From the sequence record NC_049391.1: a stretch of DNA of 37,100 nt; one strand, given 5' to 3'. Shown piece after piece: positions 402-36,362 of the stretch (its first letter is position 1; every line of letters starts with the position of its first letter). The notes under the pieces were generated by a model, which saw only the letters and a list, made by a program, of their open reading frames with translations, searched no databases and was not told where the DNA came from. The position numbers and the translations under genes were made by a program. This stretch comes from Xuanwuvirus P884B11.

Positions 402-1448
402 TCAGGATGTGGGCTGGGTGTCCAGCAGTGCATAAGGGTTAAAGCGGATCACCTCTTCGCCAAGCCAGTCATTGATGTGCTTCATGGCCTCCATGACGGG
501 CATCAGCTCGTTAATTGCGTAAACCCGCGCGGCCTTCTCCACATCACCAAACGCACTTTTTTCACCCGGCATCGCCCCCATCAGTTGCGGCGGGACACGG
601 TGCGCAGCCAGCACATCATCACGGGATGCCGCCTTAACATTCATGAACTCATCCTTTGCGGTGATCTGCTGGAACGGCAAAATTTGCACCCCCTCTTTGC
701 CCCCGTTGGGCGCATGAATGAGCACGTTTTTAAACGCACCACCACCACGTGCACCCTGTAACGTTTCTTTCAGGGAGTCCATGCTTTCGCGGTTTACCTG
801 CGCTGCACCGATGTAGATGATGCACCCGGCGTGGGATCCGTTGTCGTAATACAGTTTTCTGAACATGTCCGCCGAATGAGACAGGCTGGCCGAGAGTAAT
901 GCGCCGAGATATTCCGGCATGCCGTAGATTTCCTGGTTAATATCCGGATTCATCAGGTGACACACTTTGCCGGGGCGAAACTGGAACGCGTCCTTGCCAT
1001 CCTGCACATACCACCATGATTCAAGATCGCTTCCGCGTCGCATGTATTTCGCCAGGGCGTGCCGTAATTTAAGCGGTTCGCCGAGCATATTGCTTCGAAG
1101 CTCAAGGAATGCGTTACCGAACACAAACCAGTCCAGCGCCAGCGCCGAGAAATCCTGCCGGGAAAGCAGCGGGTGCGGGATGTAGCAACCGAGTAATACA
1201 TTGCGCTTAAAGTAAAGCGCAGACTGATGCCAGGACGTTTGCCGGGCAGCTCTTGCCAGACCGTACCAGTCCACCGGGGTTTCATACCACCGCCCGTTAT
1301 CAGCACAGTACATATTATCCAGCAGGTCATGCCCGGTCAGGCGATAAGGCCCATCAAATGTGAATGCACTGAGCGACGATTCATTCCTGAGCGCATCAGC
1401 GAGATCAATGCGTGAACTCATGCGCACTTTTTTATTTTTTCTGCTCAT
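402..1448 (-). CDS. Q: Portal (capsid portal) protein, P2 gpQ-like
   Basis: 348-aa ORF; length, position next to terminase P and sequence resemble P2 Q as I recall it; start overlaps the P stop. Confidence 0.85.
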   Translation of the reverse strand: MSRKNKKVRMSSRIDLADALRNESSLSAFTFDGPYRLTGHDLLDNMYCADNGRWYETPVDWYGLARAARQTSWHQSALYFKRNVLLGCYIPHPLLSRQDFSALALDWFVFGNAFLELRSNMLGEPLKLRHALAKYMRRGSDLESWWYVQDGKDAFQFRPGKVCHLMNPDINQEIYGMPEYLGALLSASLSHSADMFRKLYYDNGSHAGCIIYIGAAQVNRESMDSLKETLQGARGGGAFKNVLIHAPNGGKEGVQILPFQQITAKDEFMNVKAASRDDVLAAHRVPPQLMGAMPGEKSAFGDVEKAARVYAINELMPVMEAMKHINDWLGEEVIRFNPYALLDTQPTS

Positions 1449-3199
1449 CAGAACTCCATAACCGTGAAACGCTCGTTTTCTCCTTCGCCGCCAATTGGTT
1501 CGTTAATGACAGCAAGCATGGTTGCCCACGCAAGGTCGCCGTGGCTGATCCCCCTCGCGCGGTCCGTTTCGTAAGTGATAAAGCCGCCCGGTGTTTTCAC
1601 CTTACGCACGGCGTTAAAGGCTGCGACCAGTTCGCGTTCGGCGCGATCGTATTCCCACCGCCCGGCGCGCATTATTTGCAGCATTTTCAGTACCAGCGAC
1701 CGTTTTGATGACAGCGTGAAGGTGTACGGAATAGCAGCAGGGAAAAACCGTTTCACTATCTGATAAACAGCCTCCCCGTTCCCGCCCGTCACATCAATGC
1801 CGATGTGTTCCACGTTGTAGCGACACGTGAACTCTTCAATGACTCTGGCCTGTTCTTCAAACTCCAGCCCCTGAACGCGTCGCGTCTCCACCGTTCGAAA
1901 ACGGCCACCAGGAACAGCCGGAGGGACCACCACGGACACCGCGCCGCTGTCGCCGTTGCCACTGCTGCCGTTTGCGTCATACCCAATCCATACCGGGCGA
2001 TTCCCCATCGGGCGGGGAGCAAAAGGTTTCCAGTCTTTCCAGTCGTCGTATCCGTCAACACCGCAGCCAATCAGGATATTCAGGTTAAATGCCGATTCCC
2101 CTTCGCGGACAAACTCACACATATAGAGATTGAGGAACTCGTCTTCGGTGTTTTCATCACGAATTTCGTCGATATCGGTGTGTTTCCAGCCGTGATTAAC
2201 CACATCTTCCAGCGTGACAATTTGCCGCCACGTCCGGTCAGGGCAGATAAGCCCGTTATGCAGCGTTTTCCAGTCCACAGAAAAACGCTGGCGTTTATGC
2301 GTGGCCTTTTTCTCGTTCCAGCGGTCGCCGTTCCAGTAGGCGTATGCCTCGTGCGTTTCGGTGGATGGCGTGGAGAAGTAGGTGCGCCGCAGTCCGCTGA
2401 GGGTTGCCATAGCGCCAGCCACCTTGCGCAGTTCAGCAAAGCGGCTGACCCAGAAAAATTCATCAAAATAAAAATTGCCAGTATAGGACTGTGCCGACGC
2501 AGCAGAAGTGCCGAGGAAATGCAGCTCTGCGCCGTTGGAGAGGATGATTTTATCACCCCCTTTCAGCTCCACATCAACTTCAGCCGCGGCCTTCTGAATA
2601 ATGCTTTTAAACTGGAACGCCTGACGACGCGACGCAGACAAAAAAATCTGGTTACGCTGGTAAGGTTGCGCCACATCGTCACGCAGCGCCATCAACAGTG
2701 CTTCCTGTGCAAAATACCAGGTCGCCCCAATCTGTCGGGATTTCAGGATCATCCTGTTACGTATCCCGGCTTCCCTGCAAAGGGTCAGGGCGTCAAACCA
2801 GCCCCGCTGATGCCACTCCAGCCTGCTGATGATTTTTTCCCGCAGTGCGGCAATCTGTTCCGGCGTGAAATGATTTTTAAGTTTTTTCGCCCGGGTTTTC
2901 TTTCCTGTGGCCGTCGCATCCGGCTGGTCATTATGCAGTTTTTTAAGCTGCCGGGTCAGCAGGTCTATTTCCTTGAAGTCACCACCTGTTTTATTCTGTT
3001 TTTCAGTAAGCTGGATGAGGCGCGCATCGATGGACTGCGTGACACGCTGCACGGGTGGCGTTTCATCCCACTGATCGCGTTTTTTCCACGCATAAATCGT
3101 GTTCGGGTTTATTCCCATCAGACGTGATATTTCTGCGGGCGGATAACCCTGCCAGTAAAGTTGTCGCGCACGCTGGCGCACAAAAGCGTCCTGAATCAT
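1448..3199 (-). CDS. P: Terminase large (ATPase) subunit, P2 gpP-like
   Basis: 583-aa ORF divergent from the O-N-M capsid operon, as in P2; N-terminal HTH-like segment followed by a large ATPase/nuclease body. Confidence 0.85.
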   Translation of the reverse strand: MIQDAFVRQRARQLYWQGYPPAEISRLMGINPNTIYAWKKRDQWDETPPVQRVTQSIDARLIQLTEKQNKTGGDFKEIDLLTRQLKKLHNDQPDATATGKKTRAKKLKNHFTPEQIAALREKIISRLEWHQRGWFDALTLCREAGIRNRMILKSRQIGATWYFAQEALLMALRDDVAQPYQRNQIFLSASRRQAFQFKSIIQKAAAEVDVELKGGDKIILSNGAELHFLGTSAASAQSYTGNFYFDEFFWVSRFAELRKVAGAMATLSGLRRTYFSTPSTETHEAYAYWNGDRWNEKKATHKRQRFSVDWKTLHNGLICPDRTWRQIVTLEDVVNHGWKHTDIDEIRDENTEDEFLNLYMCEFVREGESAFNLNILIGCGVDGYDDWKDWKPFAPRPMGNRPVWIGYDANGSSGNGDSGAVSVVVPPAVPGGRFRTVETRRVQGLEFEEQARVIEEFTCRYNVEHIGIDVTGGNGEAVYQIVKRFFPAAIPYTFTLSSKRSLVLKMLQIMRAGRWEYDRAERELVAAFNAVRKVKTPGGFITYETDRARGISHGDLAWATMLAVINEPIGGEGENERFTVMEF

Positions 3200-21847: not shown

Positions 21848-22004
21848 AGCTTCAGCCCCTTGTATCCGTTAAATGATTCGGCAACAATCATCACCCACCA
21901 CGCGCGTAATCTCACCCCTGCGCCGTTCTCCCGCCACGGCGACAACAAAAAGCAGTAACCCCCTCCGCACGCACATGCGACCATGCCGCACAGGGAGGGA
22001 ACAG

Positions 22005-23114
22005 ATGACCGACACCACCATGCAATTGCTCAGTCAGGGCACAGACCCCGTGAAAATGCCGGATTTTGATATTCTCGCGGAGGGTAAAACGCTGTCAGGC
22101 GTGGCAGAGCGCCTGATGAGCCTGTCACTGACCGACAACCGGGGATTTGAGGCGGACCAGCTCACCATCACGCTGGATGATGCAGATGGTCAGTTGCAGC
22201 TACCGCCACGGGGCGCGCGCCTGACGGTTCTCATTGGCTGGAAAGGAGAACCGCTGACAGAAAAAGGCACTTACATTGTTGATGAAATCGCTCACGAAGG
22301 ACCGCCGGACAGGCTGACTGTTTCAGCCAGAAGCGCAGATTTTCGGGATGAATTTAACGTTAAACGTGAGGTGTCCTGGCATGATGTGACCGTTGAGCGT
22401 GTGGTATCCGCCATCGCTCATCGGTACGGTCTGAAACCGCAAATCAGCGAAATGCTGATGGATATCGAAATCGACCACGCCGACCAGACCGAAGAAAGCG
22501 ACATGTCCTTTCTTACGCGCATGGCGGAAATGCTGGGCGCAATCACCACGGTAAAAAGCGGTAATCTGTTATTCATTATGCCAGGCGGTGGCGTGAACGC
22601 ACAGGGCCAACCGTTGCCATCGTTCGCCATCACGCGCAGCAGTGGCGATCGCCATCAGTTCCGCATTGCTGACCGCGAAGCGTATACGGGTGTACGCGCC
22701 TACTGGCTTGATCTTAATTACGGGAAAAAGAAAAAAGTCAGCGTGAAACGCCGCAAACCGCCAAAACCCAAAAAGGAGAAAAGCAGCAGCCGTGAAGGTG
22801 ATTATATGGAAGGCGCGGAAGGAAATGTGTTTGTGTTACGCAAGACTTATCAGAACGAGCAGGCAGCAAGACGCGCAGCGGCGGCAAAGTGGCAGCAGCT
22901 ACAACGCGGAGCCGCATCATTCTCCATCACACTGGCTCGTGGACGCGCAGAACTCTACCCCGAAATGCATGGCACGGTAACAGGATTTAAAAGCGAGATT
23001 GATAATCAGGACTGGATTATTGCGAAAGCCGATCACACCATTGATAACAGTGGCTTTACCACGCAGCTTGAGCTTGAAGCAAAAATTCCGGAATGGATAG
23101 CAGAAACAGAGTGA
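22005..23114 (+). CDS. D: Tail/late gene D protein, P2 gpD-like
   Basis: Start at MTDTTMQ with GGGAGGG RBS (track ORF starts at 21873, overlapping FI); about 369 aa. Confidence 0.8.
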   Translation: MTDTTMQLLSQGTDPVKMPDFDILAEGKTLSGVAERLMSLSLTDNRGFEADQLTITLDDADGQLQLPPRGARLTVLIGWKGEPLTEKGTYIVDEIAHEGPPDRLTVSARSADFRDEFNVKREVSWHDVTVERVVSAIAHRYGLKPQISEMLMDIEIDHADQTEESDMSFLTRMAEMLGAITTVKSGNLLFIMPGGGVNAQGQPLPSFAITRSSGDRHQFRIADREAYTGVRAYWLDLNYGKKKKVSVKRRKPPKPKKEKSSSREGDYMEGAEGNVFVLRKTYQNEQAARRAAAAKWQQLQRGAASFSITLARGRAELYPEMHGTVTGFKSEIDNQDWIIAKADHTIDNSGFTTQLELEAKIPEWIAETE

Positions 23115-23156: not shown

Positions 23157-23417
23157 ATGTTCCGTTGTCCGCTTTGTGGCGCATCTGCCCGTATCCGCAC
23201 CAGTCGTTCGGAAAATGATTCAAACACCGTACGGAAAAAATATTACCAGTGTAACAACCTGGAATGCGGCATAAGTTTCTCAACACTGGAAGCTTTCCAT
23301 AAATTCACATCGAAACACGCCCCCGGCGTTCACTCTTCAGAAGGTATCCCGTGGCATGAGTTGCCAGCTTCACACAGGGGAAACAATCAGATGAGTTTGC
23401 CTTTATCTCAGAATTAA
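23157..23417 (+). CDS. ogr: Late gene transcriptional activator Ogr (zinc-finger), P2 Ogr/186 B-like
   Basis: MFRCPLCG...RTSR...YYQCNNLECGISF: the Cys4 zinc-finger spacing and N-terminus of P2 Ogr. Confidence 0.88.
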   Translation: MFRCPLCGASARIRTSRSENDSNTVRKKYYQCNNLECGISFSTLEAFHKFTSKHAPGVHSSEGIPWHELPASHRGNNQMSLPLSQN

Positions 23418-23607
23418 CAGGCAGAATTGCCGGAGTAACAAAAAAGCGATAGATTACGCGCGGGTGCCTTTCGGCTGATGGTCGGAGGGAATACCCGAAG
23501 GCCAGATGTGGAAAGGCCCCGGAAAACATTTCTGTTTAACCGAGGCCCTAACCGTCTAACCTTAGCAAGTGATAGGTTAGCGCCTCCCTGAAAAAGGAGC
23601 AAGCGCT

Positions 23608-23748
23608 ATGTCGCAAAAATCGCTTACGGCCATCACGTTCTGCGTGACGGCAATCCTCATCATCTGGATGCTGCACGGTTCGCTGTGCGAAATACGGATG
23701 AGCTTCTGGGGAGCGGAGTTTGCGGCGTTCTTACAGTGTAAGCAGTAA
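23608..23748 (+). CDS. Hok/Gef-family type I toxin (small membrane peptide)
   Basis: 46-aa ORF missed by the 60-aa track; hydrophobic TM then SLCEIR...AAF core shared with Hok/Gef; GGAG RBS; upstream hairpin (CTAACCT/AGGTTAG) and strong 3-prime hairpin at 23757-23779. Confidence 0.6.
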   Translation: MSQKSLTAITFCVTAILIIWMLHGSLCEIRMSFWGAEFAAFLQCKQ

Positions 23749-23821
23749 GGAAACCGCGACGGGGGAGCAATCCCCCGTCAATCGGTTGCCAGGGTAAGGT
23801 CGATAAGGCACCCTATCTCAC

Positions 23822-23931
23822 CAATGCCGTTCAGTTAGTTAAGGAATTGAGGTTCGATAGCCCGAACCTCGCGCAGAGGCAATATGACCGAAAGCCTGAT
23901 TCCTTAATGCCCAAGATGAGTCTCTATTCAT
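23822..23931. repeat. Left ~110-bp terminal inverted repeat of the 1.49-kb element
   Basis: Near-identical to the reverse complement of 25201-25307 (a few substitutions, one 3-bp indel); contains nested sub-palindromes TTAAGGAAT...ATTCCTTAA and GAGGTTCG...CGAACCTC. Confidence 0.8.
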
Positions 23932-24157
23932 AAAAGCGCTTAACTACTCGACATTGGCGGTGTATCCCCCGCATTGTCTGAATGCCGCCTCTTACCTTTC
24001 GCGGTCAACTGACGACTTCTAGTTCTAGAACGCCTTGATTTTTTGTACTTGTACATTGAAAAATAACCATAAATTGTTAGCCTGTGCAGTAGACTCAGTG
24101 GTGGTAACTGGTCAGCATGAAGTGTAAAGTGAATAACGAAGCTCTAAAATTATAGGG

Positions 24158-24406
24158 ATGGTCATGAATAATAAGCTAAAGGTAATTGAGTTAAATAGTC
24201 TTGATCTGTTTCGTAAAGAATTACTAACTACTATAAAGCCAGAGAAAGTAGAGAAATTACTTAGATGGTATCTTCAATCATATGGCGGTGTTAATTTCAA
24301 GTTCGGTTATGACAGACCAATTTTTAGAGCGCGAAAGTGCCCAAATGAATGCGGATATAATAACATCAGTGAGATATATCCCCCTCACCAGAAAAATGTA
24401 AAATAG
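24158..24406 (+). CDS. Hypothetical protein; probable N-terminal part of a frameshift-split RES-domain protein
   Basis: 82-aa ORF ending 6 nt before the next ORF; contains PIFRARK, positioned like the conserved N-terminal Arg of RES domains. Confidence 0.5.
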   Translation: MVMNNKLKVIELNSLDLFRKELLTTIKPEKVEKLLRWYLQSYGGVNFKFGYDRPIFRARKCPNECGYNNISEIYPPHQKNVK

Positions 24407-24411
24407 GCCGA

Positions 24412-24990
24412 ATGAATGATGATGGACAAGCTATCTTCTATGGCGCTTATAGTATCGGAACAGCTTTAGCCGAAATTAATGCAAAAGAAGGGGATTATGT
24501 TCACATAGCTCACTTTAAGATGCCGGAAAATTCAGAGTCTGGAATGCGATGTTTTGCTATCGGTGAGGTCTTTAATGTGTATCACGGTGTAAATACAATT
24601 TCAATTGAAGTGTTTAATGAAATTCGCGACATCATTAGCAGAATTGGTAAGGACGACATCCGAGCTTTGCTATCATATTTGTATATGGATGCCCTTTCTG
24701 CTGAGTTGCTTAATAGTATCAATGCCCATGAGGTAAATTATATTTACTCAAGAATTTTTTGCCGTCTTCTTCTTGATAAATACCCTGATGTTGATGGTCT
24801 TATTTATCCTAGCGCTAAAATAAAAGGGGCCTCAAATATCGCTTTGCGCACAGAAACAGTTAAATTGAGAATGCATTTAGTTGCTAATCTTGTGTTTAAA
24901 GTAAATAAAATTTATCCATATGGAATAGTAGATTTCAGTATAGTAAAACAAGCCAAAGGACATACATCAGATGGGCGCATCGTTTGGTGA
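24412..24990 (+). CDS. RES-domain protein (putative NAD-targeting toxin family), C-terminal part
   Basis: 192-aa ORF; the frame is open upstream to give GR-MNDDGQAIFYGAYSIGTALAE (GRxN...Y...E pattern) and later DGLIYPSAKIKGASNIAL (PS motif), the hallmark RES residues as I recall the family. Confidence 0.55.
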   Translation: MNDDGQAIFYGAYSIGTALAEINAKEGDYVHIAHFKMPENSESGMRCFAIGEVFNVYHGVNTISIEVFNEIRDIISRIGKDDIRALLSYLYMDALSAELLNSINAHEVNYIYSRIFCRLLLDKYPDVDGLIYPSAKIKGASNIALRTETVKLRMHLVANLVFKVNKIYPYGIVDFSIVKQAKGHTSDGRIVW

Positions 24991-25200
24991 GCCAAACTTT
25001 TAGTTAGCTGATTGAAAAACCGATGCGTCAGTTTGCACTGCATGTGGTGTATGGGAAGCGCGGGCTTGTAGTGCAGGTCATTTCAGAAGAAGCTAACGAG
25101 AAAGCTTAGACATACTGTGACTACTAAACAAGCAGAAAGCCCGTGTTTATGGGGGCAATCCACACAACAGGCGATGTCGATTAGTTAATACACTTGTATG

Positions 25201-25307
25201 AATAGAGACTCATTTTTGTGCATTAAGGAATCAGGCTTTCAGTCATCTTGCCTCTGCGCGAGGTTCGGGCTATCGAACCTCAATTCCTTAACTGAACTAC
25301 ATTGCCC
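25201..25307. repeat. Right ~110-bp terminal inverted repeat of the 1.49-kb element
   Basis: Reverse complement of the left repeat at 23822-23931. Confidence 0.8.
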
Positions 25308-25502
25308 TATCTCACAGCTCTAAATGCAAAAATCCCATGAAACTGTGGGTATTTCATCACACACTGACACTGCTCTACCTTTCTATATGTATCACTCTAA
25401 ACCAGTTAATCAATTGGCACTTATCAACAACAAAAAATCTGATAAAATCAAAATGTTTTGTAACAAATTTCAGCTTGTAGTGTTCCAAAGGAGACGGATT
25501 AC

Positions 25503-25835
25503 ATGGCATTAATCAAATGTCCTGAATGCCAGAAAGAGGTCAGCGATTCAGCATTATGTTGCCCTGCTTGTGGTAAACAACTGAAAAAACTTAAGCGTTC
25601 ATTTTTTGGAAAACTCATTAAATGGGCTTTTATATTTTTTAATATTTTTATGATCTATACACTTTTAGTTGGACTAGGAGGCGCTGATGAAATAATAAAC
25701 AATACCACATCCGATGCCGAAAAAGCTGGGGCAGTTATTGGTACGGGCTTAGGTTTAATTGTCATTGGAGGCTTATGGGTTATTGGCGATATCATTATCG
25801 GAATTTTAGTATTTCTTACTAAACCAAAGGGATAA
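25503..25835 (+). CDS. Small zinc-ribbon inner-membrane protein (hypothetical)
   Basis: 110 aa; CPEC...CCPACG zinc ribbon, then two hydrophobic helices; AAGGAG RBS; AT-rich codon usage unlike the phage core. Confidence 0.6.
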   Translation: MALIKCPECQKEVSDSALCCPACGKQLKKLKRSFFGKLIKWAFIFFNIFMIYTLLVGLGGADEIINNTTSDAEKAGAVIGTGLGLIVIGGLWVIGDIIIGILVFLTKPKG

Positions 25836-25839
25836 TAAA

Positions 25840-26733
25840 ATGAAAAATATGATTTTTACTATAGGTGCATTATTTATATCAATTAGTGTACTGCCTGTTC
25901 ACGCAGCAACTGAACATAAGAATTTCAATGCAGTGCTCCAGTGCCGAGCGATAGAAAACAATAAAGACAGACTTTCTTGTTATGATAAGTCAATACAACC
26001 GACTCGAACGAAAGTTGCTGAAAAATTTGAAAGCAGGGATCAATGCCCTGATGAGAAAGATGATGACAAACGTTTATCTTGTTATGATCGTTTTTTTTCT
26101 CCAACATTTACTCCATCTGTAAACTCAAAATCTAAAACGGAAAAGCTAGTAACAACAGAGGCTCAGCAACCAAATCTTTCTGAAATATCTAAATGCCGAG
26201 CAGAAAATGATAAAGAAACCAGACTAAACTGCTACGATAAACTATTCCCACAGGATGAAGCTGTTCAATCTGAATCACAATTAGAGAAAGCCACAGATGC
26301 AGGAAAATGGCACACGTCCATTACTACATCGCCAATTGATGATTCGAAAAATGTAATTTTATCGTTAGAAAGTGATGATTATATCAGAACTCCATTTGGA
26401 GAAGCTGTTACTCCCACTCTGTTTATAGCTTGCCGAGAAAAGAAAACCGAAGTATTTCTTAGTTGGGATGTATATTTAGGCCTTGAACAAACCAGCATGC
26501 TGTATCGTCTTGATAAACAGAAAGCAGTTGAAAGAAACTGGCTAATATCTACAGATACAAAGGCTGTTTTTTATAAAGGTAATGATATTGATTTCATAAG
26601 AAAACTTGCCAACTCACATAAAATGTACACAAAAATAACCCCCTATAATGAAAGCCCTGTAAGTGCAACTTTCAATTTAAGCGGCCTGTCAAATGCACTA
26701 AAACCGCTTCAAGATGCTTGTAACTGGAAATAG
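25840..26733 (+). CDS. Secreted (periplasmic) protein with three tandem Cys-pair repeats (hypothetical)
   Basis: 297 aa; signal peptide ending VHA-A; three copies of C-x11-C-YD(K/R) (QCRAIENNKDRLSCYDK, QCPDEKDDDKRLSCYDR, KCRAENDKETRLNCYDK); starts 5 nt after the previous ORF; AT-rich. Confidence 0.6.
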   Translation: MKNMIFTIGALFISISVLPVHAATEHKNFNAVLQCRAIENNKDRLSCYDKSIQPTRTKVAEKFESRDQCPDEKDDDKRLSCYDRFFSPTFTPSVNSKSKTEKLVTTEAQQPNLSEISKCRAENDKETRLNCYDKLFPQDEAVQSESQLEKATDAGKWHTSITTSPIDDSKNVILSLESDDYIRTPFGEAVTPTLFIACREKKTEVFLSWDVYLGLEQTSMLYRLDKQKAVERNWLISTDTKAVFYKGNDIDFIRKLANSHKMYTKITPYNESPVSATFNLSGLSNALKPLQDACNWK

Positions 26734-27071: not shown

Positions 27072-28076
27072 TTAATCCCCCGTGGACACTGCGTGGACAC
27101 TTACGCCACCTTTCAGCGGATTAAGGGCCACCGCATCCTGCAGGTAATCCGGTGCAAAATGCGCATATGCCATTGTTTGCTGAATGGTTGCGTGACCAAG
27201 AATCTTCTGAAGCGCAATAATGTTTCCTCCGTTCATCACAAAATGGCTGGCGAACGTATGCCGCAGCACATGTGCAGCCTGGCCTTTTGGTAAATCGGGC
27301 TTAACTCTTTTCAGTGCCAGGCAGAATTCCCGGTACTTCACCTCAAACAAGCCGCCTGTTTCTCTGGTTTTGATCGCCTCACAAACTGCCTGCGAAATTG
27401 GCACTGTTCTCTTCCGGCCATTTTTGGTTTCAAGAAACGTTACACGGTTATGAACTATCTGTTCACCACGAAGCTTACAAGCTTCACTCCAGCGCGCCCC
27501 TGTGCTTAAACACAAAAGCGCAACACGCCAGTAGTCGCCCTCCAGTGTATCGAGCAATAGCGCCACTTCCTTCTGTGACAGGAACGCCATTTCTCGTGGA
27601 GATACATAAAGAATAGAAATTCCCCTTACTGGATGTTCTGCATCCCAAAGACCTATTTTTTTCAGCACGGTAAACATTCCGGATAACCGATTCATGTACC
27701 TGTTAGCAGATGACGGTTTCAATCCTTCAGCTATCTTTTGAGAACGCCACGCGATAATTTTCAGCTTATCAAGATCCACAGCCTGCATATCAGCGCCAAG
27801 CTCATTGATTATGTTGCGCAGTTGTTTTCGGTCTTCTTCCGCCTTACGCCTGTGCTGGCCGTGATACATCCACCACAACTCAAGCAAATCATTTAGCGTT
27901 CGACGATCACGGTAGCCCTGTATATATTCCCGCTTTTCAGCGTTCGCCATGATGTAGCGTTCAGTGGCCACCGCTACCGATTTTTTGTCAAATACCTTAC
28001 GCACGCGCTTTCCCTTGCGTCCGTTCGGCCTGATGTCCAGCAAATAACGACCATCTTCGAGCTTCTTAATCGACAT
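27072..28076 (-). CDS. int: Tyrosine integrase, P2 Int family
   Basis: Start at MSIKKLEDGRY (P2 Int begins MAIKKLDDGRY); C-terminal ARWSEA...HVLRHTFASH...LGHATIQQTMAYAH catalytic motifs (R, H-x-x-R, Y). Confidence 0.9.
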   Translation of the reverse strand: MSIKKLEDGRYLLDIRPNGRKGKRVRKVFDKKSVAVATERYIMANAEKREYIQGYRDRRTLNDLLELWWMYHGQHRRKAEEDRKQLRNIINELGADMQAVDLDKLKIIAWRSQKIAEGLKPSSANRYMNRLSGMFTVLKKIGLWDAEHPVRGISILYVSPREMAFLSQKEVALLLDTLEGDYWRVALLCLSTGARWSEACKLRGEQIVHNRVTFLETKNGRKRTVPISQAVCEAIKTRETGGLFEVKYREFCLALKRVKPDLPKGQAAHVLRHTFASHFVMNGGNIIALQKILGHATIQQTMAYAHFAPDYLQDAVALNPLKGGVSVHAVSTGD

Positions 28077-28172
28077 TACGAAGCCCTCCAATGAACCGCT
28101 CTACAATTTCTCCAGCCTCTTTCCAGCAATAATCAGACCAGACAAAAAGCAGGTCTAACCAGTTTTCTGGCC

Positions 28173-28606: not shown

Positions 28607-28894
28607 ATGAGCGAATCAGAGCTTGGGGGGTTCATTCAGGTAGCACCATATCCACTTGAAGCGGTGCCATATCAACTATTCGCCAAGATGATCGGCCGCA
28701 AGGAATCCACAGTCAGAACCATGATTGACGCAGCAAAGCTACCGACAATTGACTTTGTGAAACCAGGTTCAGTAAAGACGCGTGCATCAGAAAACTGGGT
28801 ATATCTGCCAGCATTTAACGAAGGCATGCGCAAAGCGTTTTTTGAGCAACCGAAAGAACGCCGCGACGCATGGTTGTTGTGGCTGGGACTTTAG
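28607..28894 (+). CDS. cox: Cox-like excisionase / lytic-switch regulator
   Basis: 95 aa; PYQLFAKMIG...WVYLPA...WLLWLGL resembles P2 Cox (PYQEFAKLIG...WVYLPA...WLMWLGL); GGGAG RBS. Confidence 0.8.
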   Translation: MSESELGGFIQVAPYPLEAVPYQLFAKMIGRKESTVRTMIDAAKLPTIDFVKPGSVKTRASENWVYLPAFNEGMRKAFFEQPKERRDAWLLWLGL

Positions 28895-31190: not shown

Positions 31191-31512
31191 GAAACCAGAA
31201 CATGCACACACAAAAAAACCGCTTGCCATGCCGCAATCAGTCAGGTTACATTTCCGCTGCACCTCACAAAACGGGTGCCGGGTTTCGCAGCCTGCTGACT
31301 ACACAAGCGCACAACCGCGCCAGCGGTTTTTTTGTGCGTACTGTATTGCCACGTTTTTTTCGCGTCAGAATTATGGCGGGGCGTACGGGGCCGACTTCGG
31401 TCGGGCCGGGTTCTTGTGTAGCCGGTACTGCGAACCTCGTACGTCTCGCCACCCACAGTTTCGCAGCTCTGGATGGTGAGTTTTCACAACTTACTACACA
31501 AGGGGCCACACC

Positions 31513-31743
31513 ATGGCAAACCGCAAACCACACCGCGCTATCGCGGAGCGTCGTCACATCCAGACTGAAATCAACCGCAGACTTTCCCGCGCATCACGCG
31601 TCGCGCAAATCATGCACATCAATATGCTGCATGAGCGCAGCCACGCACTATCAAACATTTATTCCGCCTCTGTTTTCAGCTATCTGGCGGATGATCTGCA
31701 CGAGCTTCAACAGCTCATCCAGCAGCAAAACAAACTCCATTAA
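31513..31743 (+). CDS. Hypothetical early protein
   Basis: 76-aa ORF after a 320-bp non-coding gap; the track's 31202-31819 ORF in another frame looks spurious. Confidence 0.4.
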   Translation: MANRKPHRAIAERRHIQTEINRRLSRASRVAQIMHINMLHERSHALSNIYSASVFSYLADDLHELQQLIQQQNKLH

Positions 31744-31815
31744 CTCCTGTTCCGGGCCTTTCCTGCACCTTGCGGCGGGAGGCCTTCGCACATCTGTAAC
31801 AAGAGGATTGCCGCA

Positions 31816-32181
31816 ATGATTCTCGCCAACGACTTTCTTGAATACCTGCTCAACACAGAACGTGATCTTGCCGCTCGCGTGCGTGATCGTTATGACATGT
31901 ACCTGAAATCCCTGCCTGTACCGCAGCTCGCTGACGGAAAGATTGTTATTGATGGTCGCTACATGATTGACAGCCACGAGGGAAATTACAGGCTTTACCG
32001 CATTGAAGGTGGCACCCCGTCCGTTATTGGCATTTACCAGCGCCCATCCTCTGCAATCGTCGATGTGATTGCCGACAGCATCCGCATCACACATCGCCAT
32101 GCCGACACAGAAGACACCGTGCTGGAAATTCAGCGGCTGGCTACAGTCTGCCGCGACACCCTGAATGGCATGACGAAGTAA
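31816..32181 (+). CDS. Hypothetical early protein
   Basis: 121-aa ORF immediately upstream of A. Confidence 0.45.
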   Translation: MILANDFLEYLLNTERDLAARVRDRYDMYLKSLPVPQLADGKIVIDGRYMIDSHEGNYRLYRIEGGTPSVIGIYQRPSSAIVDVIADSIRITHRHADTEDTVLEIQRLATVCRDTLNGMTK

Positions 32182-32187
32182 ATCACT

Positions 32188-35010
32188 ATGACGGCAGAGT
32201 ACATCAGGGACTGGCAACAACCGCGCCACGCAGTGGGGCGTGAAGGAACGGGGATCCCCGCTCCTGAATCCGCGCTTTCCTCCTGGCTGGATGCCTACCG
32301 GGTAGAGAACGAGCGCCGCCAGGAAATGGCTGATGCGGCGTTCTCCGCAACGCCGCTGGGCAACCTGATTAATAAAAGCCTGGACGCACAGGAAAAACAG
32401 GACAAAACCATCACACTGGCAGGAGATGCCAGAAAACAGGCACGCGGCGCGGTGGATGAAGCCATGGCCTCGCTGCGCCTGCTGCCGTCCTATCTGCGCG
32501 ATCCGCTTATTCGCCACCTCTCCTTCCTGCGCAAAAAACAGGAAGCCGATCGTCAGAAAGGCAAAAAGAGCTGGCAGGCTGAACGCTACGCGCGCGGAAA
32601 CCTGCGCAAAATATTCGAACGTCTGGAGCGCACCGATCACCGCTGGCTGACACAGGGTTATCGCTCCCTTGCCGGACGCGAACGCCTGGACGATTTGCTT
32701 TACCTGCCGCAGCTCAACAAACACCAGATACAGACACTGGCCACCATGACGGCGGCGATGTTCAGCAGCACCTTCGAAAAACTCTGCGATGGCTTTGGCG
32801 CGACCGATGGCGAACTGACCATGGATGTAACGCTGAAGGCGTATCAGATGCTGGCCCGCATGGCGTTACACCTGCACGCCATACCTCCACATTATGACGC
32901 ACTGACAACAGACAAAGACCGGAGGAACGAACCGGACACGGAGCTGCTGCCGGGCGCAATCCTTCGCCTGACCTGTGCAGAATGGTGGAAACGCAAACTG
33001 TGGCTGTTACGTTGCGAGTGGAGAGAAGAACAACTCCGCGCCGCCTGTCTGGTTTCCAGAAAAACATCGCCCTATCTGAGCCAGGACGCGTTAAGCGAGT
33101 TTCGCGCACAGCGCGAGAAAACACGCGATTTCCTGAAAAGTTTCATGCTGGAAAATGAAGACGGGTTCACGATTGATCTCGAGACAGTGTATTACGCGGG
33201 AGTAAGTAACCCGGTTCACCGTAAGGCAGAAATGATGGCCACCATGAAGGGGCTGGAACTTCTGGCCGAAGCCCGTGGTGACAAAGCGGTGTTTCTGACT
33301 GTCACCTGCCCGTCAAAATACCACGCAACAACGGAGAACGGTCATCCGAACCCCAAATGGAACGGGGCCACCATGCGCGACTCCAGCGATTACCTGGTTA
33401 ACACGTTTTTTGCGGCGGTCCGCAAAAAACTGAACCGCGACGGCCTGCGCTGGTATGGCATCCGCACGGTGGAGCCTCACCATGACGGCACCGTGCACTG
33501 GCATATGATGGTCTTTGCTCATCCGGAAGAAATCGACAGCATCGTGGCCATCACCCGCGATATTGCCATTCAGGAAGATCGTCACGAACTGGGCGATGAT
33601 ATTACTCCGCGCTTTAAGGCGGAGTATGTCGACGGCTCAAAAGGCACACCAACCAGCTATATCGCGACCTACATCGGAAAAAACCTGGACAGCCGCGCCG
33701 TAGATGGCATCGACCCGAAAACGGGCAAGCCACGCGTTGACCACGAAACCGGAAAATCAATGGCCGAGAGCGTGGAGCGCGCCATTGGCTGGGCGCGTCT
33801 TCATCGGGTCCGCCAGTTCCAGTTCTTTGGCATCCCCTCCCGTCAGGTATGGCGTGAACTCCGCCGCCTTGCCAGCCAGATGGCACGCAACCCGGAAGGC
33901 CCGCAACGGCTGAAGGATGATGCAATGGATGCGGTACTCGCTGCCGCTGATGCCGGGTGTTTTGCCTCCTACATTGAAAAACAGGGCGGCGTACTTGTTC
34001 CACGTAAAGACTACCTGATTCGCACCGCCTACGACCTCGCAGATGAGCTGAACGATTACGGCGAGCAGAGTGTACAGATTTACGGGATCTGGTCGCCGCT
34101 CATCGGGGAGTCTTCCCGCGTGTGTACGCACCCGGATAACTGGAAGCTGGTAAGACGTAAACCGGAAGCGGAAGACAGCGCCCGCGAAAATGGTTTTGAC
34201 CTTCAGGGCGGCCCTACCGCCCCTTGGACTCGTGGCAATAACTGTCCCCGTGTACAGGAAACGGACAACAACGGGACAGAACAGCCGGAAGAACGGCCAG
34301 CACCGTGGCCGCAGCTTCCTGACGGCGTTGACGTGAATGAATGGATGCGCTCACTGAAACGGCACGAACGCCGGGCGCTGATGCGTTCGCTGCGTGACAA
34401 ACAGGCAAAAAACAGCAGTGATGAAATGCAGAACTGGACACAGAGCCGCAAACAGCCACGGCCTTTGCCTGATAACCACGAGTTACTCGCTAAAGAATGG
34501 CGGGAGTCTGCTGAATCTCTCGGCCTGCATATCGGTGAACAGCAGATGCAGCACCTGTTACGGGGCGGCAGTCTGTACGTTGACGGCAGCATCATTGCAC
34601 CGCAGGGATTTGAAATTGTACGCAAACCAGATACCCGCCCGGACAGCCGAATCACGCAACTCTGGCAGCGCCTGAGCCGTAATCACGGCGTAAGCAGCAC
34701 GGAGATCCGCCATAACCCGGTCGCCAGCTATCTGGAACAGCTGGGGGCATCAGACCCCGAAGCCGCCGCACACCTGGCATCCACACTTCAGCAGGACCAG
34801 AACACCATGAAAACCCCCGTTACCGTGCTTTCTGACATGCTGCGCGCCATCCGTGACGCAGAGCACGCACAGAGAATCAGTGAAACCACTGAACGCGCCC
34901 ACCGCAAAGCAGACCTGCTGCGGGGTAGCCTGACCAGTGGAAACAAAAAACAGACAGAAACGGGACTCACAAATCCCGTAAATGAGCAAAAAACGTGCCG
35001 CGATATATGA
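32188..35010 (+). CDS. A: Replication initiation protein A (rolling-circle, HUH endonuclease), P2 gpA-like with long C-terminal extension
   Basis: 940 aa; HUH-type TVHWHMMVF motif; position after the early ORFs as in P2. Confidence 0.85.
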   Translation: MTAEYIRDWQQPRHAVGREGTGIPAPESALSSWLDAYRVENERRQEMADAAFSATPLGNLINKSLDAQEKQDKTITLAGDARKQARGAVDEAMASLRLLPSYLRDPLIRHLSFLRKKQEADRQKGKKSWQAERYARGNLRKIFERLERTDHRWLTQGYRSLAGRERLDDLLYLPQLNKHQIQTLATMTAAMFSSTFEKLCDGFGATDGELTMDVTLKAYQMLARMALHLHAIPPHYDALTTDKDRRNEPDTELLPGAILRLTCAEWWKRKLWLLRCEWREEQLRAACLVSRKTSPYLSQDALSEFRAQREKTRDFLKSFMLENEDGFTIDLETVYYAGVSNPVHRKAEMMATMKGLELLAEARGDKAVFLTVTCPSKYHATTENGHPNPKWNGATMRDSSDYLVNTFFAAVRKKLNRDGLRWYGIRTVEPHHDGTVHWHMMVFAHPEEIDSIVAITRDIAIQEDRHELGDDITPRFKAEYVDGSKGTPTSYIATYIGKNLDSRAVDGIDPKTGKPRVDHETGKSMAESVERAIGWARLHRVRQFQFFGIPSRQVWRELRRLASQMARNPEGPQRLKDDAMDAVLAAADAGCFASYIEKQGGVLVPRKDYLIRTAYDLADELNDYGEQSVQIYGIWSPLIGESSRVCTHPDNWKLVRRKPEAEDSARENGFDLQGGPTAPWTRGNNCPRVQETDNNGTEQPEERPAPWPQLPDGVDVNEWMRSLKRHERRALMRSLRDKQAKNSSDEMQNWTQSRKQPRPLPDNHELLAKEWRESAESLGLHIGEQQMQHLLRGGSLYVDGSIIAPQGFEIVRKPDTRPDSRITQLWQRLSRNHGVSSTEIRHNPVASYLEQLGASDPEAAAHLASTLQQDQNTMKTPVTVLSDMLRAIRDAEHAQRISETTERAHRKADLLRGSLTSGNKKQTETGLTNPVNEQKTCRDI

Positions 35011-35086: not shown

Positions 35087-36046
35087 ATGAAAATTTGTAT
35101 CGACGACGGCTCCACCAACATCAAGCTGGCATGGACTGAGAACGGCGAACGCCGCAACGCCATCAGCCCGAACAGCTTCAAGTCGGAATGGTCTGCGCCG
35201 TTCGGTGGCACGCAGCCCGCGAACTACATGCTTGATGGCGTGCGCTATGGTTTTGATCCGGTCAGCGATCGCTTTGTCCAGACGACCGACACGCAATACC
35301 AGTACAGCGATGTGAATATAATTGCCATTCATCACGCGCTGGTCAAATCAGGCATCACACCACAGGAAGTGGATGTGGTTGTCACCCTGCCACTAAGCGA
35401 GTATTTCGATACAAACGCACAGCCGGACATGGCCAACATCAACCGCAAAAAAGCGAACGTCATGCGCCCGGTGGAGTACCAGAACGGCGAAGCATTCACT
35501 ATCCGTAACGTACGGGTTATGCCTGAATCCATTCCGGCTGGCTTTAAGGCACTGGCTGACATGAGTCCGTTTGAATCCCTGCTGATTGTGGATTTGGGCG
35601 GAACCACGCTGGATGTGGCAAAGGTTCAGGGGCAACTGGCAGGTATCAGCCAGGTGTTTTGCGATCCACACGTGGGCGTTTCTCTGATGGCCGATGCCGT
35701 ACTGTCGGTGATGGCCACTAACGGTATGCGCACCAGTCACCACATCGCCAATACCATTATCGAACATCGCCATGATGAAGCCTGGCTGCGCCAGCACATC
35801 CACAATGACGCGCATTACGCCAGCCTGATGGCGGTAATTCGTGAAAAGGAAGAAACACTGAAACAACGCGTGATCCGCGCGCTGGCGGGTTTTTCGGGTT
35901 ACGGGCGGGTGATGGTTGTCGGTGGAGGGGCGGAGATTGTGGCACCCGCTATCCGCGAAGCCTGCGGAGTTAATGCGACTTTCATCGCGGACGGGGTGCC
36001 ACAGTTTGCTCTGGTTAATGGGCTGTACGCAATGGACAAGGAGTAA
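35087..36046 (+). CDS. parM: Actin-like segregation ATPase ParM (StbA) family
   Basis: 319 aa; N-terminus DDGSTNIKLAW, ISPNSFK, YSDVNIIAIHHAL, VMPESIPAG, LIVDLGGTTLD, VVGGGAE track plasmid R1 ParM almost motif for motif as I recall it. Confidence 0.85.
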   Translation: MKICIDDGSTNIKLAWTENGERRNAISPNSFKSEWSAPFGGTQPANYMLDGVRYGFDPVSDRFVQTTDTQYQYSDVNIIAIHHALVKSGITPQEVDVVVTLPLSEYFDTNAQPDMANINRKKANVMRPVEYQNGEAFTIRNVRVMPESIPAGFKALADMSPFESLLIVDLGGTTLDVAKVQGQLAGISQVFCDPHVGVSLMADAVLSVMATNGMRTSHHIANTIIEHRHDEAWLRQHIHNDAHYASLMAVIREKEETLKQRVIRALAGFSGYGRVMVVGGGAEIVAPAIREACGVNATFIADGVPQFALVNGLYAMDKE

Positions 36047-36050
36047 ACCA

Positions 36051-36362
36051 ATGACGACTCCAACCAGACGGATAAGTTTCTATCTGAAGCCCACCGCCGT
36101 CAAGAACGAAGGAGAAGCATGCGCCTGGCTGGACAGCCTTACACCAGAAGCCCGCAAAAGCGGCCAACGCGTGGCTTTTCTGGCCGGGCTGGCACTTCTG
36201 AAAATGAATCCGGCAGAGGCTTATCGACTGGCTGCATGGGCTGGTGATGAAGCGTTATCAGTGACACAAACCAGGACAGAACGCCCCGCATCACAGCCAG
36301 TATCAACCGCACAGATAACCAGTCAGATGGCCGGAAATATCCGGGCGTTATTTCCTGAATAA
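36051..36362 (+). CDS. parR: ParR (StbB) centromere-binding adaptor
   Basis: About 103 aa from MTTPTRR; RRISFYLKP...LDSL...AFLAGLALLKMNP mirrors R1 ParR (RTIAFKLNP...LDSI...ALTAGLALYRQDP); start 5 nt after the parM stop with AAGGAG RBS. Confidence 0.75.
   Translation: MTTPTRRISFYLKPTAVKNEGEACAWLDSLTPEARKSGQRVAFLAGLALLKMNPAEAYRLAAWAGDEALSVTQTRTERPASQPVSTAQITSQMAGNIRALFPE

Follow-up and report, generated by a model that had tools for sequence, protein, structure and literature searches.

A probable hok/sok-type toxin-antitoxin cassette in the post-ogr cargo slot of Xuanwuvirus P884B11

Location of the cassette and its toxin peptide

In a stretch of 37,100 nucleotides from Xuanwuvirus P884B11 (NC_049391.1; the window below, from whose first letter all positions are counted), a cassette of about 395 bp lies between ogr and the attachment/integrase end of the phage. 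It extends from the hok -35 hexamer at 23427 to 23821, the last base conserved across unrelated contexts, and its hok promoter begins 10 nt past the ogr stop codon. The first-pass annotation had placed a Hok/Gef-family type I toxin locus of hok/sok architecture at 23440-23780; family and architecture were correct and the Hok profile is positive, but that span is short at both ends, by about 40 nt at the 3' end, and the conserved unit is 23427-23821. We put the probability at roughly 0.8 that this unit is an intact hok/sok-type type I toxin-antitoxin (TA) cassette carried as cargo by a P88-like (P2-family) phage, with a mechanism that we infer. The toxin gene comprises two features:

23608-23748, plus strand: hok coding sequence, 46 amino acids, ATG start, Hok/Gef family, cluster 72 (MSQKSLTAITFCVTAILIIWMLHGSLCEIRMSFWGAEFAAFLQCKQ)
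23594-23599, plus strand: hok Shine-Dalgarno sequence AAGGAG, 8 nt 5' of the ATG

A search with a Hok/Gef profile had been suggested as a check, and the peptide matches Pfam HOK_GEF (PF01848) above its cut-off, at 29.9 bits (gathering cut-off 22; E 4e-7), with residues 7-44 aligned on profile positions 5-42 of 42. The transmembrane helix and the SLCEIR and AAF motifs recognised earlier in the 46-residue frame are all present. Its most hydrophobic 15-residue stretch, residues 8-22 (AITFCVTAILIIWML), has a mean Kyte-Doolittle value of 2.55, and the frame has the form of a small peptide of about 45-55 amino acids with a single N-terminal hydrophobic helix. Among 1264 Hok peptides the residues conserved in more than 80% are, in logo numbering, M1, C16, T18, L30, C31, E32 and E41 (bioRxiv 10.1101/2025.08.07.668861). 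All have counterparts here, at M1, C12, T14, L26, C27, E28 and E37. When compared by BLASTP with R1 Hok, C12, T14, L26, C27 and E28 are identical and the last residue aligns at E37; M1 falls outside the BLASTP range, and the remaining residues were mapped by reading the 4-residue offset. C44 occupies the C/Y position.

Cassette and peptide are already known from RefSeq, phage records and a Hok catalogue. RefSeq WP_000078916.1, 'Hok/Gef family protein', has the identical sequence, as does peptide 72_1621 of the catalogue, a 2026 preprint. Of the 45 homologues assayed for the catalogue, which include 72_1621, 42 were toxic, and 72_1621 is absent from the three named as non-toxic; it was cloned as LRP137, and toxicity on overexpression is reported (bioRxiv 10.1101/2025.08.07.668861). 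Cluster 72 of that catalogue (Escalera-Maurer et al.) holds the same peptide, with no difference at the protein level, and is rated high-abundance; the predicted Shine-Dalgarno sequence given for the identical peptide in Table S2 of the preprint is 'GGAGC' (bioRxiv 10.1101/2025.08.07.668861). The best match in NCBIfam is HokA of E. coli K-12 (NF007290), over residues 6-45, at 34 bits against a cut-off of 89, and the 46-residue Hok is thus not the HokA equivalog.

The cassette is widespread, occurring in 1750 of 5426 complete E. coli genomes, in 196 phage records and on 35 plasmids, with DNA homology of 74-100%; the recurring copies are usually labelled "Hok/Gef family protein". Whatever the flanks, which include ogr, lom, gpJ, IncI1 plasmids, ykgO and serS, the homologous stretch is always about 23441-23821. 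Copies 3' of ogr are annotated in phages P88, 500465-2 and Chuche and in E. coli prophages, and the lom-adjacent copies of Stx phages belong to the same 46-residue clade, which is also found on IncI1 and IncF plasmids and at chromosomal sites outside prophages. The open reading frame is intact across 18 diverged copies.

Promoters, antisense RNA and messenger fold

Two promoters and two transcripts are predicted in the cassette:

23427-23455, plus strand: hok promoter, -35 TTGCCG at 23427-23432, 17-nt spacer, -10 TAGATT at 23450-23455
23462-23821, plus strand: predicted full-length hok mRNA, about 360 nt, 5' end inferred and 3' end predicted
23602 to 23574, minus strand: predicted Sok promoter, -35 TTGCTC at 23602 to 23597, 17-nt spacer, -10 TAACCT at 23579 to 23574
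23512-23567, minus strand: predicted Sok antisense RNA, about 55 nt, with a single-stranded 5' tail, a GGGCCUCGG...CCGGGGCC hairpin and then UUU

The hok promoter hexamers (TTGCC, TTGCG or TTGAA with TAGATT, TAGAAT or TACATT) keep a fixed spacing to GGGTGCC in 17 homologues whose contexts are unrelated, and their position agrees with that of the R1-type and 933W promoters. For Sok, the -10 TAACCT is invariant among 17 homologues and the -35 is TTGCTC, TTGCCT or TTGACT; each hexamer has 3 of 6 consensus positions, and the -35 overlaps the hok Shine-Dalgarno sequence. A generic sigma-70 scan of 23300-24200 returned no sites, both promoters being sub-threshold, and no terminator-like site on the plus strand; its sole 'terminator' is on the minus strand and is the complement of the hok 3' stem-loop. 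As it flags only that complement and no promoter, the scan is uninformative for weak, family-specific promoters.

The Sok start was set by analogy with the annotated sokW of 933W, at the 7th-8th nucleotide past the -10. Its predicted terminator hairpin has a folding energy of -21.5 kcal/mol (z = -3.2) and is followed by an invariant 3' CGGGGCCTTT. An antisense Sok gene had been anticipated in the first-pass annotation, and the homologous minus-strand promoter with its invariant -10, together with the terminator hairpin and UUU, supports the prediction. Mutations in the sokW promoter sequence (in the figure, the -10 region) abolished the antitoxin effect (PMC8621323).

The 5' end of the hok mRNA is taken as 23462, the start of the match to Rfam RF01794, and the 3' end as about 23821, where homology to all other cassettes stops. 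Rfam at gathering thresholds gave no match in the region. In E-value mode the RF01794 'sok' model, which the R1-type control shows to derive from the hok-sense leader, aligned end to end with 23462-23621 at 43.6 bits (E 2e-8 in an 801-base search), short of the gathering score of 59. Other members of the clade scored 33-51 and the R1-type control 87.2 bits, and the relative span of the match equals that of the control.

When folded, 23462-23821 reaches a minimum free energy (MFE) of -159.5 kcal/mol (z = -6.5), as good as which were none of 100 shuffles. Apart from mok, all RNA hallmarks of hok/sok loci were found and are conserved across 17-18 homologues:

23462-23475, plus strand: tac box GGGTGCCTTTCGGC at the mRNA 5' end, near-invariant among homologues
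23508-23520, plus strand: ucb box GTGGAAAGGCCCC, from folding and alignment
23542-23586, plus strand: Sok-target (sokT-like) hairpin of the truncated mRNA, z = -3.5, helix 5, 91% paired
23580-23587, plus strand: dcb or anti-Shine-Dalgarno box GCGCCTCC, from folding and alignment
23758-23779, plus strand: 3' stem-loop GACGGGGGA/TCCCCCGTC, -19.7 kcal/mol, z = -5.5 against shuffles
23799-23813, plus strand: fbi box, core AAGGCACCC at 23805-23813, pairing with tac

These boxes are predicted to exchange partners between two forms of the messenger. In the full-length fold tac pairs with fbi, as a helix of 14-15 bp (23462-23475 with 23799-23813) present in both the MFE and the centroid structure; 94% of the cells of this helix are paired among 18 homologues, and its 3' side alone varies, by G-U-compatible changes. 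After 3' truncation tac is predicted to pair instead with ucb at 23508-23520, as seen on folding 23462 to 23780..23800; here 12 of 12 pairs are invariant, hence without covariation. The ucb box itself would pair with a CGAGGCC box as long as the mRNA is full-length and with tac once it is truncated; the 3' half of the Sok terminator is complementary to ucb. Folding predicts that dcb pairs with the hok Shine-Dalgarno sequence and AUG (23596-23608) when the mRNA is full-length or Sok-bound, and with GAGGC at 23542-23546 in the truncated fold; the dcb helices 6 and 7 are paired at 100% and 94% in the homologue alignment.

Two hairpins had been noted before. The leader hairpin CTAACCT/AGGTTAG does exist, at 23556-23562/23574-23580, one base from where it had been put, but taken alone its stability is what chance would give (-4.4 kcal/mol, z = -1.1) and homologues differ in its 5' arm, and we rejected it as a relevant structure; the conserved pairing uses an upstream copy of CTAACC, at 23548-23553, within the 23542-23586 hairpin. 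The GC-rich 3' hairpin was confirmed at 23758-23779, though not as the 3' end of the locus, fbi lying further 3' at 23799-23813. Compensatory changes occur at 4 of its 9 pairs, and it is 99% paired in 18 homologues. In R1 the equivalent stem shields the truncated messenger, Tr-hok, from 3' exonucleases (PMC9841398), and by analogy the stem-loop is expected to be the protective end of the processed hok mRNA.

Over the whole structure 91-93% of positions are paired, against about 40% with the partners slid, and changes on both sides occur at 21 pairs, a number reached by none of 500 shuffles. The covariation set consists of 18 E. coli-group sequences because a species-level genome scan gave only five loci. 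We give practically no weight to the view that the reading frame and hairpins arose by chance in a spacer between genes and that no gene is present. The frame is short and the promoters fall below the generic consensus scan, but the Pfam match, the 18 intact copies, the z = -6.5 fold, the compensatory base changes and the reported toxicity of the identical peptide (bioRxiv 10.1101/2025.08.07.668861) refute it.

Directly outside the cassette is an insertion of 1,483 bp (23822-25304) with terminal inverted repeats of about 135 bp, which carries a frameshifted RES-domain gene and is flanked by an 11-bp target duplication, CCCTATCTCAC, at 23811-23821 and 25305-25315. It splits hok from a former downstream hairpin, now 1.5 kb away. 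The element was considered as a multicopy MITE and rejected, as it is single-copy and in a constant context in 66 genomes.

An insertion at this place might have altered the mRNA 3' end and left the cassette silent or deregulated in the phage, which we judge unlikely. The final three bases of fbi fall within the target duplication, the former downstream hairpin has been displaced, and the plus strand of 23300-24200 offers no terminator-like site in its stead. IS insertions beside hokA, hokC and hokE of E. coli K-12 have reportedly been regarded as inactivating those loci (Pedersen and Gerdes 1999). On the other side, all boxes through fbi are intact and identical to the consensus, the peptide is that of the reportedly toxic 72_1621, the arrangement is kept in 66 E. 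coli genomes at an identity of at least 95%, and the left inverted repeat gives a stable hairpin at 23849-23870 that could halt 3' exonucleases.

The leader without mok and a proposed control

A mok-like leader frame, which the first-pass annotation had expected, is absent. In the window, and likewise in 13 of 18 relatives, each of the three frames meets a stop codon 16-79 nt 5' of the hok ATG and has no start codon beyond it; no conserved open reading frame with ATG, GTG or TTG reaches the hok Shine-Dalgarno sequence in the window and the 18 relatives. The R1-type and 933W controls both yielded mok. The Sok-target hairpin holds the GAGG box that serves as mok Shine-Dalgarno sequence in R1, with no mok start codon 3' of it here, and in the alignment with R1 and 933W non-start triplets stand in place of the mok ATG.

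R1 strictly requires that mok be translated as far as the hok Shine-Dalgarno sequence, and only that translation matters (PMC9841398). A coupling of this type might persist through a 37-codon upstream frame, 23478-23591, whose finishing ribosomes would open the anti-Shine-Dalgarno/Shine-Dalgarno helix and would be blocked by Sok. This frame runs through the Sok target to a stop 2 nt 5' of the hok Shine-Dalgarno sequence, at -16 relative to the hok ATG, as the R1 rule (PMC9841398) would have it, and in one relative (pETEC, L006) the frame opened by this ATG is 70 codons long and overlaps hok. We nevertheless regard such coupling as very unlikely. The frame from 23478 is unconserved, with a stop at -43 in Chuche and 500465-2, at -35 in P88 and at -56 in the IncI1 copies; the alignment of the Stx-phage copies has it closing a few codons past the ATG, on our reading, and their ORF lists lack it. 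A frame that reaches the Shine-Dalgarno sequence is missing in 13 of the 18 relatives. The ATG at 23478 moreover has no Shine-Dalgarno sequence (upstream GTGCCTTTCGGCTG) and lies within the first stem of both predicted conformations.

Since a conserved mok frame is absent, we propose that the folding switch acts directly on the hok ribosome-binding site. The weak promoter would give a stable mRNA of about 360 nt whose 5' tac is paired with the 3' fbi. In this closed form ucb would be held by the CGAGGCC box, and the anti-Shine-Dalgarno box GCGCCUCC would cover the hok Shine-Dalgarno sequence and AUG. Slow 3' trimming to the stem-loop at 23758-23779 would delete fbi, upon which tac:ucb would form, the Sok-target hairpin would arise from pairing of CGAGGCC with the anti-Shine-Dalgarno box, and the hok ribosome-binding site would become looser. 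As long as transcription continues, Sok of about 55 nt (minus strand, about 23567 to 23512) would bind the Sok-target hairpin; this should free the anti-Shine-Dalgarno box and re-close the hok ribosome-binding site, and the duplex should also be a substrate for RNase III. Once transcription stops, Sok would decay first and Hok would be made. Possible triggers are prophage induction, shut-off of the host by a second phage, and loss of the element. The instability of Sok beside a stable hok mRNA, and RNase III cleavage of the duplex, are known for R1 (PMC9841398) and in part for hokW-sokW (PMC8621323).

Predicted opening energies agree in direction with this scheme. Opening the hok ribosome-binding site (23592-23621) is predicted to cost 15.3 kcal/mol in the full-length form, 11.0-13.5 in the truncated form and 18.5 in the truncated form with the Sok site occupied; for the Sok-target loop the predicted costs are 9.4 kcal/mol full-length and 5.6-7.2 truncated. 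The gaps between states are modest, 2-7 kcal/mol by thermodynamic folding alone. Opening energies were chosen because the mean unpaired probability of the Shine-Dalgarno sequence was nearly equal between mRNA states and failed to separate them.

Because mok translation is mandatory in R1, a mok-less version is an extrapolation. We hold the chances about even that the 46-residue clade (cluster 72) is naturally mok-less and that the tac/fbi/ucb/dcb relay, together with Sok, gates the hok Shine-Dalgarno sequence by way of GCGCCUCC. No description of mok-less hok/sok control in cluster 72 was met with in the literature searched.

Related systems and possible roles in the phage

The cassette resembles R1 hok/mok/sok (parB) in its promoter, tac, ucb, GAGG box, dcb, 3' stem-loop and fbi, all in identical order, and the R1 Sok promoter (TTGCGC-17-TATCCT) lies in the homologous place. 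It differs in that R1 Hok has 52 residues rather than 46, with 39% identity over 31 residues, in that mok is present in R1 and absent here, in the overlap of its Sok -35 with the hok Shine-Dalgarno sequence, and in its phage rather than plasmid context.

A second relative is hokW/mokW/sokW of the Stx phages 933W and Sp5, likewise prophage-borne, whose Sok has the identical -10 TAACCT and 17-nt spacer and whose leader is similar. HokW belongs, however, to another Hok cluster (51 residues, 31% identity over 35), mokW is an in-frame N-terminal extension of 19 codons starting within the Sok target, sokW measures 71 nt against about 55 nt predicted for Sok here, and the hokW locus lies elsewhere in the phage. 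The hokW-sokW pair is a type I TA system with partial dependence on RNase III and Hfq (PMC8621323). We rejected the identification of the Stx-phage matches as hokW, since the published hokW primers have no sites in the lom-adjacent 46-residue loci and HokW is of a different cluster; hokW-sokW is an analogue of the cassette at a different locus.

The parMR genes cited in the first-pass annotation were confirmed, with parM and a ParR-like gene at 35087-36362. The plasmid-style maintenance that had been read from them stands as one possible role and not as the sole one, given that the phage encodes an integrase, that chromosomal copies exist and that the prophage hok/sok studied has a role in lysis. 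The region from gpD to TagO has near-identical copies (99.4% over 5.1 kb) in E. coli chromosomes beside flk.

The hokW-sokW locus is the one prophage hok/sok studied experimentally, and it aids lysis and phage release (PMC8621323). The cassette might accordingly be mainly a helper of lysis and release rather than an addiction module, Sok being lost on induction and Hok damaging the membrane before holin and endolysin act. In Sp5, sokW vanishes after mitomycin C, HokW precedes endolysin by about 1 h and deletion of the locus halves phage release (PMC8621323). The literature further gives an approximately four-fold enrichment of hok genes in prophages, and the lom-adjacent Stx-phage copies share the 46-residue clade. 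We hold such a role to be possible but rather doubtful as the principal one, as HokW is of a different cluster (31% identity over 35 residues) and has a mok frame, the sequence offers no tie between the present Sok and induction, and the clade also occurs on IncI1/IncF plasmids and at chromosomal sites outside prophages, settings in which the timing of lysis plays no part. On sequence alone, the benefit to the phage may lie in keeping the prophage or episome, in excluding other phages or in assisting lysis.

The finding carries little weight as a discovery, and the absence of mok is its one point for specialists. For phage annotation, it assigns a complete type I TA module to the post-ogr cargo slot and corrects its boundaries. 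The Hok catalogue deliberately left mok, Sok and mRNA structure unanalysed (bioRxiv 10.1101/2025.08.07.668861), and the regulatory anatomy of the cassette lies outside its coverage. If true, the absence of mok would be a caution for annotation tools that expect mok at hok loci, and the cassette would offer a natural test of a folding switch that gates the ribosome-binding site of a toxin without translation of a leader.

Genomic setting of the cassette

The sequence is the entire genome of a P2-family phage of the P88 and 500465-2 type, in which the following landmarks are found.

402-3199, portal and terminase genes
21873-23114, gpD (Pfam Phage_GPD)
23157-23417, ogr (Pfam Ogr_Delta)
27072-28091, integrase
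28607-28894, cox
32188-35010, replication gene A
35087-36362, ParM (Pfam StbA_N and the ParM C-terminal domain, E 4e-82), overlapped by a ParR-like (Plasmid_stab_B) ORF

The Hok cassette lies immediately 3' of ogr, in a cargo region ahead of the integrase. The region from gpD to TagO has near-identical copies in E. coli chromosomes (99.4% over 5.1 kb), adjoining flk. The stretch 25503-26733, past the hok cargo and short of the integrase end, encodes a 110-aa zinc-ribbon protein and a 297-aa VasI/TagO-like 'type VI secretion-associated' protein, a pair that is kept in related flk-adjacent prophages. The ParM/ParR-like pair of this integrase-carrying P2-family phage occupies the slot bounded by gene A and the right end. 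Because the same ParM recurs at 95-99.7% identity in P88, 520873, Shae_phiSM, PhiR44_2, Chuche and others, it is a feature of the P88-like lineage; the sole further phage match is D6 (47.5% identity). In the early region, plus-strand Rfam matches to isrK (31259-31333, 64 bits) and, beside it, C4 antisense RNA (31369-31456, 83 bits), both above gathering score, overlap the beginning of the ORF 31202-31819, which has an Ash-family domain; the two form a P1/P7-type c4 immunity-like RNA module.

The Hok peptide and distribution of the cassette

The first-pass annotation had proposed a Hok/Gef toxin to be checked with the family profile, on the strength of a 46-aa ORF with a transmembrane helix and an SLCEIR...AAF signature. 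Both motifs and a single hydrophobic helix (residues 8-22) are present, and the profile search was positive (Pfam HOK_GEF, 29.9 bits; cut-off 22); the proposed identity is correct. The peptide is 100% identical to RefSeq WP_000078916.1 and to entry 72_1621 in Table S2 of the Hok catalogue of Escalera-Maurer et al. (bioRxiv 10.1101/2025.08.07.668861), who report 42 of 45 cloned homologues to be toxic; 72_1621 is not among the three named as non-toxic. The gene is not hokW of the Stx phages: HokW is only 31% identical over 35 aa, and the published hokW primers are missing from the lom-adjacent 46-aa loci.

DNA searches show that the cassette is one mobile unit. A stretch of about 380-395 bp, starting at approximately 23427/23441 and ending at 23821, has counterparts of 74-100% identity in 1750 of 5426 complete E. 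coli genomes (in up to nine places per genome), in 196 phage records, of which seven are P2-like and the remainder mostly Stx phages, and in 35 plasmids. Flanks are unrelated among copies, which lie 3' of ogr, 3' of lom, between gpJ and a tail-fibre gene, on IncI1 and IncF plasmids, beside ykgO and beside serS, and which are usually annotated as 'Hok/Gef family protein' or 'MokW-like host killing'. When one genome per species was scanned, the cassette was essentially confined to Escherichia and Salmonella. Assemblies bearing the labels Planococcaceae MAG, Vagococcus sp. and Xanthomonas pisi (the last an 857-bp contig) contain near-identical E. coli-type hok ORFs, most likely by contamination or mis-binning and not because they are real hosts. 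E. coli JNEC-KY203 has a hok islet beside serS, in which 330 bp separate two such Hok/Gef genes (locus L021, 88-228 and 560-700), and in E. albertii plasmid pEA5_1 a copy has decayed, its ORF truncated to 33 aa (locus L010, 578-679).

Homology to all other copies ends at 23821, so that the locus as originally delimited was about 40 nt short on its 3' side. Relative to phage 500465-2, a 1,483-bp insertion follows (23822-25304), flanked by an 11-bp direct duplication, CCCTATCTCAC (23811-23821 and 25305-25315), which takes in the last three bases of fbi. Its ends are imperfect terminal inverted repeats of about 135 bp, each starting CAATG and each with a hairpin, GAGGTTCGATAGCCCGAACCTC. As it has a RES-domain gene but lacks a transposase, the insertion resembles a non-autonomous mobile element with cargo; of 5426 E. 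coli genomes, 66 have it, each with one copy and always in this context. The native downstream hairpin of hok has been displaced 1.5 kb by the insertion, and a generic scan of 23300-24200 gave no plus-strand terminator-like site 3' of the cassette. The RES-domain gene (24158-24990) is broken into ORFs of 82 and 192 aa by a frameshift near 24385, where a C-run is one C short of that encoding the intact 275-aa WP_032192010.1, a 'RES family NAD+ phosphorylase' of E. coli chromosomes; either the gene is a pseudogene or the sequence has a homopolymer error. No antitoxin-like gene was seen adjoining it.

Anatomy and predicted control of hok mRNA

The features of the cassette, with boxes named after the hok mRNA of plasmid R1 and all coordinates checked by script, are as follows.

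23427-23432 and 23450-23455, plus, predicted hok promoter (-35 TTGCCG, -10 TAGATT)
23462, plus, G at the putative 5' end of hok mRNA, where the Rfam RF01794 match also starts
23462-23475, plus, tac
23508-23520, plus, ucb
~23567->23512, minus, predicted Sok RNA of ~55 nt, a stable hairpin then UUU at the end
23541-23547, plus, CGAGGCC box, whose counterpart in R1 is the mok Shine-Dalgarno (SD)
23579->23574, minus, predicted Sok -10 TAACCT, 17-nt spacer from the -35
23580-23587, plus, dcb or anti-SD box, GCGCCTCC
23594-23599, plus, hok SD AAGGAG
23602->23597, minus, predicted Sok -35 TTGCTC
23608-23748, plus, hok CDS, 46 aa
23758-23779, plus, GC-rich 3' stem-loop
23799-23813, plus, fbi

The expected antisense promoter in the hok leader was thus located at the sequence level. 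Its -10 is invariant in 17 homologues despite a variable adjacent loop; the same hexamer and spacing precede the annotated sokW of 933W, and R1 has TTGCGC-17-TATCCT at the homologous position. In sokW, mutations in the promoter sequence, the -10 region of which appears in the published figure, removed the antitoxin effect (PMC8621323).

The predicted 360-nt hok transcript folds with z = -6.5, and in both MFE and centroid structures its 5' end pairs with fbi. Once the RNA is trimmed 3' to the stem-loop, the 5' end is predicted to switch to ucb, with a hairpin forming at 23542-23586. Across 18 homologues, pairing is 91-93% in the full-length and truncated structures, versus about 40% with partners slid, and double-sided pair changes exceed all 500 shuffles, in controls that carry tool-stated caveats; the tac, ucb and anti-SD boxes do not vary, and covariation therefore speaks neither for nor against their pairings. 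The GC-rich 3' hairpin noted earlier proved significant (z = -5.5), with compensatory changes at four pairs among the 18 homologues. The proposed leader hairpin CTAACCT/AGGTTAG is present in sequence (23556-23562/23574-23580), but alone it does not exceed chance (z = -1.1) and its 5' arm is variable; as a conserved structure it is replaced by the larger 23542-23586 hairpin, which uses an upstream CTAACC copy. An R1-type plasmid control scored 87.2 bits against RF01794 over the same relative span, whereas this clade scores 33-51 bits, under the gathering score of 59, and is a divergent relative.

The mok-like leader frame that had been expected is absent. R1 and 933W have an ATG 7-8 nt past the GAGG box, within the Sok target, whereas this position here reads CCCTAACCG. 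All three frames are stopped 16-79 nt upstream of the hok ATG in this phage and 13 of 18 relatives, and no ATG, GTG or TTG follows those stops. Leader ORFs vary in length and end point even between phages 95-98% identical; the 37-codon ORF of this phage (23478-23591) ends just ahead of the hok SD, and it has no SD, starts in a predicted stem and is not conserved. Because R1 requires translation of mok as far as the hok SD (PMC9841398), we infer that this clade, without mok, initiates hok directly at its own SD. Thermodynamic folding models suggest control by the anti-SD box, which in full-length mRNA would pair with the hok SD and AUG, in truncated mRNA would be captured by the Sok-target hairpin, and with the Sok site occupied would return to the SD and AUG. 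The predicted cost of opening the hok ribosome-binding site is 15.3 kcal/mol in full-length mRNA, 11.0-13.5 in truncated mRNA and 18.5 in truncated mRNA with the Sok site occupied.

Possible roles in the phage

Existing annotations and a catalogue already cover the cassette, and its peptide has been tested for toxicity; the mok-less regulatory layout is its sole lead of some interest. Family membership would imply conditional killing, in which the toxin mRNA is stable and its antisense RNA unstable. Plasmid-style maintenance, suggested earlier from the co-occurrence with parMR, is consistent with the ParM and ParR-like genes that the P88-like lineage also carries, but retaining the prophage, or an episome, is only one of three candidate roles. 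The cassette may also exclude other phages upon host transcription shut-off, as is known for R1 hok/sok. Lastly, by analogy with hokW-sokW, for which such an effect was demonstrated (PMC8621323), it may aid lysis and release.
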